Counted from the first letter of the stretch, positions 409 to 28,168 are shown. The stretch is DNA of 28,291 nt from an uncultured Candidatus Peribacteria bacterium (GCA_964350285.1 CAYGJQ010000015.1:1-28291); one strand, 5' to 3'. Notes: a model not told the origin generated them from the sequence alone. Numbers and translations: made by a program.

Positions 409-436
409 TTGACTTTGCCTCTATTTCAAATACGAT
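409..436 (+). promoter_or_regulatory. sigma70 promoter of the orphan gene 545-1057
   Basis: TTGACT (409-414), 16-nt spacer, TACGAT (431-436). Confidence 0.65.
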
Positions 437-486
437 GAAGATCGCTCTGAATGGAGTGGTATCATTAACGATCAAGTCTAATCGTA

Positions 487-517
487 CCCGCTTTCAGAGA
501 TGTTCTTTGAAGGCGGG
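487..517 (+). promoter_or_regulatory. 14-bp leader hairpin whose 3' arm can alternatively pair with 1065-1075
   Basis: CCCGCTTTCAGAGA-TGT-TCTTTGAAGGCGGG is fully paired on the + strand using two G.U pairs. Confidence 0.75.
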
Positions 518-544
518 AAATTTCCCATGAGGAGGTAAAGCACC

Positions 545-1057
545 ATGGGATGGTTAAGTAATTTTTTCGGTTGGGGAAAGAAGGAAACAGAGGAGGAACC
601 CAATGTCCAAGAACGGGCAAAAAGGGGACAGCAACCCACTCGTGAGGCGATAGCACAAGCAGCTGAACCGGCGCGGCCAGTATCGAGAGTAGAAGAAACT
701 CTCGATCAAATACCAATGGATCAGCTTTCTGAAGTGAGCTCAGCCGCAGTGGACCTACCTATGCTCGACGATGCAAAGTTCGCTGCCATCGACGGGATTT
801 TCGAGGCTGAGGAGATTCCCCCGGAAGACCTAGAGGCCAGAAGGGCTGCGGCTGAAGAGCATCACCGGCAACGAGTAGGCAAAGACCAGATGGTCGCCGC
901 CCTCAAAGCCAAACAAGGCGGCGCCCTCAGCACAGTGCAAAAAGCCAGGCTCAAGCTTGGCATGCCACTTACCCCCCCCAAGTTCCAATACGACCCGGAT
1001 CAAGAGATCCCCGTATTCATTCGTTCCGACAGCAAATCCTCCAAAAAGGCAAAATAA
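545..1057 (+). CDS. Orphan 170-aa protein with an N-terminal amphipathic helix and a C-terminal FtsZ-tail-like peptide
   Basis: Open ORF with SD AGGAGGT 8 nt before ATG and its own promoter. N-terminus is MGWLSNFFGW; C-terminus is DQEIPVFIRSDSKSSKKAK. Confidence 0.8.
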   Translation: MGWLSNFFGWGKKETEEEPNVQERAKRGQQPTREAIAQAAEPARPVSRVEETLDQIPMDQLSEVSSAAVDLPMLDDAKFAAIDGIFEAEEIPPEDLEARRAAAEEHHRQRVGKDQMVAALKAKQGGALSTVQKARLKLGMPLTPPKFQYDPDQEIPVFIRSDSKSSKKAK

Positions 1058-1060
1058 AAA

Positions 1061-1075
1061 CTCACCCGCCTTCAA
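1061..1075. repeat. 3' arm of the inverted repeat flanking 545-1057 (partner 507-517 and 528-531)
   Basis: CCCGCCTTCAA (1065-1075) is the exact reverse complement of TTGAAGGCGGG (507-517). CTCA (1061-1064) complements TGAG (528-531). Confidence 0.7.
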
Positions 1076-1085
1076 TCCCCCCCCA

Positions 1086-1094
1086 TGTTATAAT
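1086..1094 (+). promoter_or_regulatory. Extended -10 promoter of proC
   Basis: TG-T-TATAAT ending 23 nt upstream of the ATG. Confidence 0.65.
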
Positions 1095-1117
1095 CAGGCC
1101 ACTTTTAAATCCGCAAT

Positions 1118-1900
1118 ATGAATCTCACCATCATCGGCGGCGGCAACATGGGATCCGCCATCGCTCGCAGCCTCATCAAAAATTCCGACATCAATCTCAC
1201 TATCTCGGACCCGACAGTAGATAAACTAGCTGAATTCCAAACCCAAGGCGCCACCGTCACCAGCAACAACCAAGCAGCCACCTCCAGCGCCGACGCCATC
1301 ATCATCGCCATCAAGCCACAATACATCGACAGCCTTTTCGCCGAACTAAAAGACCAAATCCCCACCAACGCCCTGATCATTTCTATCGCCGCTGGCGTCA
1401 CCATCGAACGTTTCCAAACCGGTTTCAACCATCAACAAATCGTCCGCGTAATGCCCAACACTCCAGCTCAAATCAACCAAGGCGTATCTGGTTGGTTCGC
1501 CTCAGCCGAAGTTACTGAAGCCCAAAAAGCCCAGGTGAAAACCATCCTCCAATCTTTCGGCCAAGAAGTCGAAGTCGAAAATGAATCCCTAATCGACGCT
1601 GTAACTGCTGTATCTGGTTCTGGCCCAGCATACTTCTTCTATTTCCTCGAACACATCATCAAAGGCGGAGTCGCCTGCGGTCTCACCGAGTCCCAAGCCA
1701 AAGACCTCGCCATCCAAACCGCCATCGGCGCTGCTCACCTTGCTGAACAATCCGAAGACGATCTCGCTACTCTCCGCCAAAAAGTCACCTCCAAAGGCGG
1801 CACCACTGAAGCTGCCATCAATTCCATGGTGGAAAGCAATGTCGGCGAATCAATCTCCACCGCCATCCAAAAAGCCAACCAACGCGCCAAGGAATTATAA
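1118..1900 (+). CDS. proC: Pyrroline-5-carboxylate reductase
   Basis: IIGGGNMGSAI Rossmann motif, IIIAIKPQ, ISIAAGV, VRVMPNTP, TAVSGSGPAY and VTSKGGTT. Confidence 0.98.
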   Translation: MNLTIIGGGNMGSAIARSLIKNSDINLTISDPTVDKLAEFQTQGATVTSNNQAATSSADAIIIAIKPQYIDSLFAELKDQIPTNALIISIAAGVTIERFQTGFNHQQIVRVMPNTPAQINQGVSGWFASAEVTEAQKAQVKTILQSFGQEVEVENESLIDAVTAVSGSGPAYFFYFLEHIIKGGVACGLTESQAKDLAIQTAIGAAHLAEQSEDDLATLRQKVTSKGGTTEAAINSMVESNVGESISTAIQKANQRAKEL

Positions 1901-1910
1901 AAATTTTCAT

Positions 1911-1952
1911 ACGAAAGAGCCTGGTCTCTGGGGGTTACAAACTCTTCCAGAA
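1911..1952. repeat. 3'-trailer arm of the inverted repeat flanking 1969-3159 (partner 3194-3237)
   Basis: AGCCTGGT-CTCTGGGGgttACAAACT (1918-1943, +) aligns with AGCCTGGTTCTCTGGGG-aaACAAACT (3231-3206, -). Short extensions continue on both sides. Confidence 0.85.
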
Positions 1953-1978
1953 TGTGTCCGAGGACACATCATTTCTTT
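1952..1978 (+). terminator. Possible intrinsic terminator of proC
   Basis: ATGTGTC-CGAG-GACACAT stem followed by CATTTCTTT, which is a weak U tract. Confidence 0.45.
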
Positions 1979-27093: not shown

Positions 27094-27120
27094 CGACTCG
27101 ATTTAGCAATTAACAAGCCA

Positions 27121-27150
27121 ATTATCTCATTTGTCAGGCAATTTTGTCAA
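27121..27150 (-). promoter_or_regulatory. TA operon promoter with a candidate operator
   Basis: TTGACA, 18 nt, TG-A-GATAAT. Direct repeat TGACAAA at 27130-27136 and 27143-27149. Confidence 0.55.
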
Positions 27151-27261
27151 GCGTTCATGCCTCTTGCTTAAAACTAAGTTGGCTCAAGTTTTACAGCTTT
27201 TAAACTGGCTTTCAAGCATTTAGTGTCGTCCAAAAGTGGTCGACAAAATATCCCCAGACAC

Positions 27262-27294
27262 AAAGAACCCCCGGACTTGAAGATAAGCCGGGGG
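27262..27294 (-). terminator. Probable terminator of 27367-27897
   Basis: On the - strand CCCCCGG-CTT-atcttc-AAG-t-CCGGGGG is followed by TTCTTT. Confidence 0.65.
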
Positions 27295-27298
27295 AAAC

Positions 27299-27358
27299 TT
27301 TGACCGTAGACGGTGATGTGTATGGAATTGCCCGGAAGTGGGCGAGGAGGGGAATGGA
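27299..27358. repeat. 3'-trailer arm of the segmented inverted repeat flanking 27367-27897 (partner 28040-28085)
   Basis: Collinear blocks TTTGACCG, AGACG, TGAT, TGGAA, AGGAGG and AATGGA occur on + here and on - at 28085-28040. Confidence 0.8.
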
Positions 27359-27366
27359 GGGGGGGG

Positions 27367-27897
27367 CTAGAAGTCGCTCGCTTTCGCTTTGGCCTTCTTA
27401 GCGATCCACTTGGGGGAGCCGGGGGTGGCACAACCTTTGGGGCGGCCATCACCGGGAGCAAAGTGCTCGCCATAGGCTGCCCCTTTCTTACCAGCTTGTC
27501 TCCACATCGTCAGGTCTTTGTTTTTGTAGTTGCGGAGAAATTCCTTTCGGTCTTTCTTGGCAACGCGAACCTTGACGTTGACCCAAGCGGTGCCACGGCT
27601 AAAGGCGACCACGGTGTGAGCCGGGGCTGCTCCCTTGGCTTTGACGGACAAGGTACGGCCGGTAGTGGAGAGCACCTTGATGCGGCGATGCAGGCGGATG
27701 CCTTGGTAGAAGACACCCTTGGCATGTCGCTTCTTCCAGGTCACTCTGAAGGACAGGACGTACTCTCCGGCGAGGAGAGACTGTCGAACGACCGAGCGCA
27801 CTTTTCCGACATTGGTGCCGGGGTTGGTCATGCAGGCTTCCGCTTCACCGGTGGGGAGGGACAGGGCGAAGAACAAGACGATAAGCAGCTTTTTCAT
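27367..27897 (-). CDS. Orphan 176-aa secreted, highly basic protein
   Basis: ATG with GAGGT 7 nt upstream. Signal MKKLLIVLFFALSLPTGEAEA and a Lys/Arg-rich mature part. Confidence 0.8.
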   Translation of the reverse strand: MKKLLIVLFFALSLPTGEAEACMTNPGTNVGKVRSVVRQSLLAGEYVLSFRVTWKKRHAKGVFYQGIRLHRRIKVLSTTGRTLSVKAKGAAPAHTVVAFSRGTAWVNVKVRVAKKDRKEFLRNYKNKDLTMWRQAGKKGAAYGEHFAPGDGRPKGCATPGSPKWIAKKAKAKASDF

Positions 27898-27973
27898 GAT
27901 AAAAACCTCGTAGGTTAGCTGCCAACAGTTACCAGCTCCCAGAACTTCAGAATGAAGACTGAGAGGACTATGT

Positions 27974-28037
27974 GCACCGGATGGTACACCGCAGAAAGCT
28001 CAATATTTAAGCCCTTTGCAGTACACCATCGCGGTAC
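27974..28037 (-). promoter_or_regulatory. Long leader hairpin (about 27 bp)
   Basis: On the - strand GTACCG/CGGTGC, GATGGTGTACTGCA/TGCGGTGTACCATC and AGGGCTT/GAGCTTT all pair, using at least six G.U pairs. Confidence 0.85.
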
Positions 28038-28039
28038 TT

Positions 28040-28085
28040 TCCATTCATTCCTCCTAATTTCCAATGATCACGTCTTGCGGTCAAA
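28040..28085. repeat. 5'-leader arm of the inverted repeat flanking 27367-27897
   Basis: Complementary on the - strand transcript to 27299-27358. Confidence 0.8.
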
Positions 28086-28139
28086 TTAGACCGCTCTTTG
28101 AACGATGCAGAGAACCACATGATCAAAAAGACGAGCATC

Positions 28140-28168
28140 ATTCTTACATGTTTCACTAAATTTGTCAA
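28140..28168 (-). promoter_or_regulatory. Probable promoter of 27367-27897, giving a ~235-nt leader
   Basis: TTGACA (28168-28163) followed after 16 nt by TAAGAAT, an imperfect -10. Confidence 0.55.

Follow-up and report, generated by a model that had tools for sequence, protein, structure and literature searches.

Leader-trailer complementarity in Shine-Dalgarno-led orphan genes of an uncultured Candidatus Peribacteria bacterium

Introduction

Four orphan genes on one contig of an uncultured Candidatus Peribacteria bacterium (GCA_964350285.1, CAYGJQ010000015.1:1-28291) raise the question of whether the two ends of a messenger RNA (mRNA) can be matched to each other as a property of a whole class of genes. 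The stretch analyzed, hereafter the window, comprises 28,291 nucleotides (nt) and represents almost all of contig C15; positions are counted from its first letter. The genes are designated ORF0 (545-1057, plus strand), gene 1 (1969-3159, minus strand), gene 2 (3863-4300, minus strand) and gene 4 (27367-27897, minus strand). A first-pass annotation had proposed that each of these open reading frames (ORFs) possesses its own promoter and a structured leader, that a segment of each leader is complementary to a segment of the gene's own trailer, and that the four genes form a dedicated mRNA class. In this study, the four ORFs were all found as described, with products of 145-396 amino acids (aa), and the complementarity was found to characterize a genome-wide minority of genes that carry a Shine-Dalgarno (SD) site.

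To our knowledge, mRNAs with paired ends have so far been described for a few single genes only. In the hok/Sok system and in the aapA/IsoA system of Helicobacter, a metastable hairpin at the 5' end later gives way to long-range 5'-3' pairing in the complete mRNA. These messages encode toxic peptides of less than about 60 aa and are accompanied by a cis-antisense RNA.

The assembly comprises 1.87 Mb in 153 contigs, with 44% GC and 90% completeness. The host is the sole member of its own family among the reference genomes searched, and the genomes of its relatives within the order range from 0.7 to 1.6 Mb. It is probably a Peregrinibacteria-like bacterium of the candidate phyla radiation; a ProC match at 48% identity carries the name Candidatus Peregrinibacteria. 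Two complete genomes of the host's order, designated G035 (36% GC) and G001 (50% GC), were used for comparison.

Results

The SD motif is depleted in this organism, being found at 6% of gene starts genome-wide compared with 9% of random positions, and it is also scarce in G035 and G001 (4-5.5% of starts). All four window ORFs have an SD site. In view of this scarcity, a class of genes was therefore defined by an SD site and long flanks, independently of complementarity. Flanks counted as long when the intergenic leader had at least 120 nt and the trailer at least 60 nt, which yielded 326 genes, 26 of them with an SD site. Each leader was scored against the reverse complement of the trailer, and the Watson-Crick local score was compared with that of dinucleotide shuffles. 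The 26 SD-led genes reached an own-pair score of 24.6, compared with 19.7 when leaders and trailers of different class members were combined (Mann-Whitney p=2e-6, permutation p=5e-5). The non-SD genes exhibited no excess (19.6 for own pairs and 19.9 for mismatched pairs). Removal of the four window genes left the signal in place (n=22; 23.6 vs 19.8, permutation p=5e-5). Moreover, dinucleotide shuffling of each gene's own flanks gave p<0.05 in 7 of 22 SD-led genes (Fisher-combined p=5.6e-7) and in 6 of 110 non-SD genes. The control comparisons were null, namely direct repeats (p=0.09), complement-only and reverse-only scores, decoy genes with an SD motif only at -70 to -30, and GC-rich non-SD genes. 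With flanks of only 120 nt on the upstream side and 110 nt on the downstream side, the signal was weaker (p=0.018); the 5' arms often lie further upstream. These comparisons bear out the proposal of a distinct gene class with leader-trailer complementarity, a layout that housekeeping genes lack. The class proved broader than the four genes.

The class comprises about 26-32 genes in the 1.87-Mb assembly. Its members are characterized by an SD site, often a sigma70-type promoter of their own, a leader of 100-240 nt whose folding is strong, the more so on the sense strand, and a GC-rich gene that mostly encodes an orphan secreted protein or lipoprotein. In about 40% of the class, a leader segment has a Watson-Crick match of 10-26 nt with a segment located 8-70 nt past the stop codon, which is also the range in which the 3' arms of the class start. 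The arms of different genes share no common motif, only complementarity. Leaders of the SD-led genes are more structured than those of other genes (z -2.47 vs -0.75, p=1e-4) and are biased towards the sense strand (-10.9 vs +2.9 kcal/mol, p=2e-5). Furthermore, signal peptides are encoded by 14 of the 26 SD-led genes and by 51 of the other 300 (p=6e-5), the GC content of the class is 0.51 compared with 0.444, and most of its members have no Pfam family. Six further genes with the same layout are listed in Table 1. Ordinary genes are built differently; in proC, for example, the -10 box lies only about 24 nt 5' of the ATG, which suggests that their leaders are short or absent. In addition, very large lipoprotein genes that are GC-rich and SD-led, and that encode up to 1950 aa, cluster on another contig (C4:88-15840). 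These lipoproteins carry MopE-like metal-binding and beta-propeller repeats, and they are probably surface proteins of the SD-led class.

Within the window, complementarity had been claimed for all four genes, and the strength of the match differs among them. With flanks limited to the predicted transcript, gene 1 (8+8+7 bp) and gene 2 (17 of 18 positions) stand clearly above dinucleotide shuffles (p<0.001 each). ORF0 has a modest but perfect match of 11 bp (p=0.001, or 0.0025 in the class-wide shuffle run), and the match of gene 4 is weak (p=0.027). Among 1227 genes, the scores of ORF0, gene 1, gene 2 and gene 4 rank 33, 3, 6 and 54, respectively; the corresponding ranks for cofold free-energy gain are 398, 11, 40 and 73 of 501. 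The minimum free energy (MFE) structure of the full predicted transcript joins the arms of gene 1 (28 arm-arm pairs), gene 2 and gene 4, but not those of ORF0. Random leader-trailer cofolds also give about 37 intermolecular pairs, so this joining is weak evidence. Global RNAduplex energies are likewise uninformative, since about -50 kcal/mol is obtained for whichever two such RNAs are combined.

As had been stated, each of the four genes has a predicted TTGAC-type promoter of its own, which is sigma70-like and matches 9 to 12 of the 12 consensus positions (Table 1). The leaders proved even more structured than had been claimed. In the order ORF0, gene 1, gene 2 and gene 4, the MFE z-scores against dinucleotide shuffles are -3.9, -6.4, -7.6 and -5.9 for the sense strand and -2.1, -2.8, -3.2 and -3.7 for the antisense strand. 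The three long leaders have 16-17 G.U pairs among 74-87 pairs, and the ORF0 leader has 4 among 31. Among the 369 genes whose upstream non-coding DNA reaches at least 200 nt, the leaders of genes 1, 2 and 4 take ranks 2, 8 and 10 between them. The local hairpins said to compete with leader-trailer pairing were recovered in minimum-energy folds of the leaders alone. The leaders share no homology beyond the arms, and Rfam 15 gave no match at the gathering score; at E<=1, there was none in 1-4800 and one chance snoRNA match (E=0.2) in 26900-28291. A promoter scan found no strong antisense promoter over the leaders, with no search aimed at a cis-antisense RNA made. The predicted promoters precede the arms, and wherever a terminator is visible it follows them. 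Terminator hairpins occur 3' of the arms in gene 4, in C132:648-968 and in the examples from G035. The gene 4 hairpin was read from the sequence, and the terminator scan missed it, its loop exceeding 8 nt.

Table 1. Features of the four window genes and further genes of the same layout (SD, Shine-Dalgarno; MFE, minimum free energy; C, contig)
Feature	Position	Strand	Description
ORF0 predicted sigma70-like promoter	409-436	+	TTGACT-16-TACGAT, 9/12 consensus; starts directly after the pgeF stop
ORF0 leader	443-544	+	hairpin 487-517; SD site GAGGAGGT at 529-536; MFE -35.9
ORF0 5' arm	507-517	+	TTGAAGGCGGG; 3' half of hairpin 487-517
ORF0	545-1057	+	170 aa, charged, low-complexity; no Pfam, NCBIfam or PHROG family
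ORF0 3' arm	1065-1075	+	CCCGCCTTCAA; 8-18 nt past stop; perfect 11-bp complement of 507-517
Gene 1 predicted sigma70 promoter	3397-3424	-	TTGACA-16-TATAAT, 12/12 consensus
Gene 1 leader	3160-3390	-	about 231 nt; SD AAGGAG 3166-3171; 5' arm 3206-3231; MFE -82.7
Gene 1 leader hairpin	about 3213-3341	-	long, imperfect; encloses inner hairpin 3255-3295
Gene 1	1969-3159	-	396 aa, signal peptide, Cys-rich C-terminus, GC 0.59
Gene 1 3' arm	1918-1943	-	26-51 nt past stop; holds core CCCAGAGA-C
Gene 2 predicted sigma70-like promoter	4500-4527	-	TTGACA-16-TATTCT, 10/12 consensus
Gene 2 leader	4301-4493	-	about 193 nt; SD GAGGT 4308-4312; 5' arm 4324-4341; MFE -82.9 sense, -44.6 antisense
Gene 2 leader hairpin	about 4334-4457	-	one extended hairpin
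Gene 2 (putative)	3863-4300	-	145 aa, GC 0.60
Gene 2 3' arm	3672-3689	-	TCCCAGAGAACGCAGGTT; about 175-190 nt past stop
Gene 4 predicted sigma70-like promoter	28140-28168	-	TTGACA-17-AAGAAT with TG, 10/12 consensus
Gene 4 leader	27898-28130	-	about 233 nt; SD GAGGT 27905-27909; MFE -87.0
Gene 4 leader hairpin	about 27951-28075	-	
Gene 4 5' arm region	28040-28085	-	core 28067-28085
Gene 4	27367-27897	-	176 aa, signal peptide; predicted beta-sandwich and basic tail
Gene 4 3' arm region	27299-27358	-	Watson-Crick core 27299-27317; weak statistics
Gene 4 terminator-like hairpin	27262-27296	-	GC hairpin with T-rich tail, directly after the 3' arm
Further gene, same layout	C27:3506-3847		14 bp perfect
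Further gene, same layout	C28:7998-8513		12 bp
Further gene, same layout	C33:18687-19139		
Further gene, same layout	C3:11957-12925		
Further gene, same layout	C70:7939-8256		
Further gene, same layout	C132:648-968		

The signal recurs in the two relatives in a form weaker than in the host. The permutation p values for the SD-led genes of G035 and G001 are 0.057 and 0.14 separately and 0.006 when pooled, and the non-SD genes of both genomes have no leader-trailer signal. Clear cases in G035 have p values of 0.0005, about 0.013 and about 0.015. The first of these, an orphan lipoprotein gene (L136:7897-8976, equivalent to G035:C1:27897-28976, minus strand), is the cleanest example observed: the 24 nt abutting its SD site match the first 22 nt past its stop codon, and an intrinsic terminator follows directly. 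No ortholog of this gene was found in the 201 genomes of the order searched.

In genes 1 and 2, the arms are four copies of one repeat of about 25 nt with an invariant core, CCCAGAGA(A)C. The sites, D (1918-1943, minus), A (3206-3231, plus), C (3672-3689, minus) and B (4324-4341, plus), alternate in orientation and probably arose by tandem duplication of one leader/trailer frame. No other copies of the arms were found in the genome by nhmmer with the four arms or by BLAST of the inserted regions. As a DNA pattern, the arm core gave 3 single matches in IMG/VR and more than 119 single matches in 185,579 species genomes, which is the level of chance, and the two core orientations co-occur no more often than expected by chance. 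The gene 1 and gene 2 cassettes offer the sole comparison available between related arms, and a by-eye reading of their alignment gives three differences that are matched on both arms: one change from G:C to A:U and two paired indels. In the same region, an exact 13-nt direct repeat, GGAATTATAAAAA, was observed at 1891-1903 and 3394-3406. Its first copy lies over the proC stop codon and its second over the gene 1 -10 box, and together the copies bracket gene 1 with both of its arms; the repeat may be the trace of an insertion or a duplication, or a chance occurrence (BLAST E=0.027).

No credible match to any of the four proteins was obtained from Pfam, NCBIfam or PHROGs; ORF0 gave one sub-threshold NCBIfam line (E=0.008, 14.8 bits against a cut-off of 425 bits). 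Genes 1 and 2 have no homolog besides themselves among 5.8 billion proteins, and their products are not homologous to each other. Gene 4 has two distant homologs (36-40% identity), and its AlphaFold model (predicted local distance difference test, pLDDT, 64) has no significant match in PDB. The minus-strand reading of genes 1 and 4 is backed by clear signal peptides and SD sites, and that of gene 2 by an SD site 9 nt 5' of the ATG. A slightly longer plus-strand ORF (3896-4348, 150 aa) overlaps nearly all of gene 2; of these two ORFs, only the minus-strand one has an SD site and a promoter, and the coding status of gene 2 is considered putative.

Gene order indicates that part of this DNA was acquired by the lineage. 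In two relatives (ProC identity 62-64%), pgeF, proC, mutL and lspA are contiguous with gaps of less than 45 nt; the segments 408-1117 (with ORF0) and 1901-4719 (with genes 1 and 2) are therefore lineage-specific insertions, and each of the three inserted units has its own predicted promoter. The plus strand is strongly C-rich throughout 1-28291, with a GC skew of about -0.3 that is independent of gene orientation. The orphan genes lack this skew, which is about 0 in genes 1 and 4 and would be compatible there with recent arrival or with a different constraint, and their GC content is 0.53-0.60 compared with 0.44 for the genome. A metagenome scan with ProC found nothing.

Elsewhere in the window, the order mutL-lspA-...-Band_7-SelR-AdoHcyase is broken, in comparison with the relative L011, by extra genes at 6757-7536, 8889-10667 and 11643-12416, which encode a HAD hydrolase, an orphan protein of 592 aa and TauE. 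Since these genes interrupt a conserved order, insertion between conserved genes appears to be common in this lineage. Just downstream of gene 4, the segment 26481-27093 holds a PIN-domain (VapC-like) gene preceded by a short ORF, which together are probably a VapBC toxin-antitoxin pair, and a sigma70-like promoter was observed nearby (27150-27121, minus strand). Additionally, two intergenic regions 7.7 kb apart (12804-12899 and 20611-20705) contain a 75-nt inverted repeat with 88% complementarity, adjoined by a 23-nt repeat (91%).

Discussion

We lean towards the interpretation that the leader-trailer match represents a helix between the 5' and 3' untranslated regions (UTRs) within one mRNA, and that the four ORFs are members of a minority class, spread over the genome, in which such a helix occurs. 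RNA pairing is the explanation that best fits the absence of a common motif among arms and their position downstream of the predicted promoters. In the mechanism proposed here, the leader would first form a G.U-rich hairpin of its own, with the 5' arm as part of it. After the trailer has been transcribed, its perfect complement would displace the local partner and tie both ends of the mRNA together. The helix would most likely control mRNA stability or processing. It may shield a cleavage site in the leader together with the 3' end, as in hbs of Bacillus subtilis, or it may be a substrate for ribonuclease III (RNase III), as in icaR of Staphylococcus aureus. Direct control of SD exposure is less likely. 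A role in stability or processing is favored over the translational lock suggested by the first-pass annotation because predicted SD exposure shifts inconsistently when the trailer is added. Nothing was found in support of the further proposals of circularization, of export into a host cell or of a cassette of single-strand DNA.

Several observations weigh against this interpretation. The absence of a consistent shift in SD accessibility is one of them. The arms are sharp Watson-Crick cores, and their flanks add no pairing (19 G.U against 39 A.C); the coding-strand G.U pairs formerly ascribed to the arms, and the argument for selection on RNA that was built on them, consequently fail. Being purely Watson-Crick, the arms are strand-symmetric. 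The gain in cofold free energy is exceptional in gene 1 alone, and the gene 4 pair becomes ordinary once G.U pairs are scored (p=0.33) or duplex energy is used (p=0.65). In gene 2, about 175 nt with a strong hairpin separate the stop codon from the 3' arm. Genes 1 and 2 have no homologs, and support from covariation among orthologs is absent. The two homologs of gene 4 both lie at loci with an SD site and a GC-richer gene, one (L003) with a long, structured leader and the other (L004) with a short one, and neither has a significant leader-trailer match. Finally, the genes were defined by a crude longest-ORF rule.

The strand symmetry of the arms raises the possibility that they act as DNA, as crossover sites of a site-specific recombinase that flips genes or promoters and so gives phase variation of surface proteins; this would apply chiefly to sites D, A, C and B, and we regard it as unlikely. 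Sharp Watson-Crick cores without sense-strand G.U pairs would suit such sites, and the four arms of genes 1 and 2 form one repeat family whose core, CCCAGAGA, occurs nowhere else in the genome. The pairs D/A, A/C and C/B each bracket a promoter or a gene in orientations that alternate as in a shufflon, A/C enclosing the perfect promoter at 3397-3424. Moreover, secreted proteins and lipoproteins are the usual targets of phase variation, and tyrosine and serine recombinases are encoded in the genome. These recombinase genes, however, lie outside the window, which holds none, and the arms elsewhere have no common motif that one recombinase could use. Single-nucleotide indels occur in or beside the core between partner arms, the arms, which coincide in part with sense-specific leader hairpins, lie within predicted transcription units, and transcription of gene 1 would continue in either orientation, from its own promoter or, after a flip, by read-through from proC. 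Invertons and shufflons thus share with this locus the short inverted repeats that bracket a promoter or a surface-protein gene, here at four alternating sites, but differ from it in that no recombinase is nearby and no site consensus exists across loci. A related alternative, which is very unlikely, is that the arms are the terminal inverted repeats or scars of an insertion, such as a transposase-less cassette resembling a miniature inverted-repeat transposable element (MITE), without present function. ORF0 and genes 1 and 2 do lie in DNA that is absent from two relatives and that differs from the flanking genes in GC content and GC skew; arm D begins about 18 nt past the proC stop codon, and the direct repeat GGAATTATAAAAA (1891-1903 and 3394-3406) is present. 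The arms are nevertheless internal to the insert, the arm pairs do not enclose the promoters of ORF0 (409), gene 1 or gene 2, and no target-site duplication was found beside the arms. In mobile insertion cassettes and MITEs, the repeats mark the ends, whereas the insert boundaries drawn here from synteny lie outside the arms, of which only four local copies exist; there are no further copies in the genome, and only single matches at chance level in IMG/VR and the 185,579 species genomes. The arm sequence also differs from locus to locus, so no single transposase fits.

Chance combined with composition would offer another account, in which the purine-rich leaders of GC-rich inserted genes meet pyrimidine-rich trailers and the class signal stems from crude gene calls and small numbers. 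The SD class has only 26 genes, neither relative is significant alone, several metrics show nothing unusual in gene 4 or ORF0 taken singly, the trailers are somewhat enriched in CCTCC, and the leaders are G-rich. This account is quite unlikely, as own-flank shuffles, mismatches among class members, non-SD genes of matched GC and controls with direct repeats agree with one another, and the 3' arms gather in the first 70 nt past the stop codon.

A helix between the ends of one mRNA has precedents in ordinary protein-coding genes, and these are closer than hok and aapA, on which the earlier comparison had relied. The likeness to hok and aapA lies in the 5' metastable hairpin followed by long-range 5'-3' pairing, as proposed here, and the difference lies in the products, which are of 105-1950 aa and mostly secreted in the class and of 145-396 aa in the window. 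The hbs mRNA of B. subtilis has a strong SD, a structured leader and a 14-bp helix between its 5' and 3' UTRs that modulates the accessibility of the leader to endonuclease (Braun, Durand, Condon 2017, PMC5737220). In hbs, the interaction was shown experimentally for a single conserved housekeeping gene, whereas the present evidence is computational and concerns an entire class of genes for orphan secreted proteins in a genome poor in SD sites. In the icaR mRNA of S. aureus, a pyrimidine-rich motif of the 3' UTR pairs with a purine-rich segment in that mRNA's own 5' UTR; the motif covers the SD and blocks initiation, and RNase III takes the duplex as a substrate (Ruiz de los Mozos et al. 2013, PMC3868564). 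An RNase III gene is likewise present in this genome, but most arms here lie upstream of the SD, whose predicted exposure shows no consistent change. The inserted units (ORF0, genes 1 and 2) also resemble phage 'morons', self-contained transcription units with their own promoter and terminator, atypical composition and a position between genes that are adjacent in relatives. They differ from morons in lying outside any recognizable prophage, and leader-trailer complementarity is not a moron criterion.

A broader scenario, which is tentative and rather doubtful, is that new or acquired genes for surface and secreted proteins of this order use the SD-led format, in which a metastable, G.U-rich hairpin of the leader gives way to the trailer at the end of transcription, and that only full-length, end-paired mRNAs are stabilized or licensed for translation, which would constitute a genome-wide 'closed-loop' class.

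Conclusions

If the favored interpretation of an intramolecular UTR helix is correct, end pairing would mark a whole functional class, that of SD-led orphan and mostly secreted proteins in an otherwise non-SD organism. The comparison of own-pair with mismatched leader-trailer scores provides a simple test that can be applied to any genome. Furthermore, the finding would bear on how common control through the 3' UTR is in bacteria, on how SD-poor bacteria treat their few SD-led messages, and on the expression of fast-evolving surface genes in ultra-small episymbiotic bacteria.

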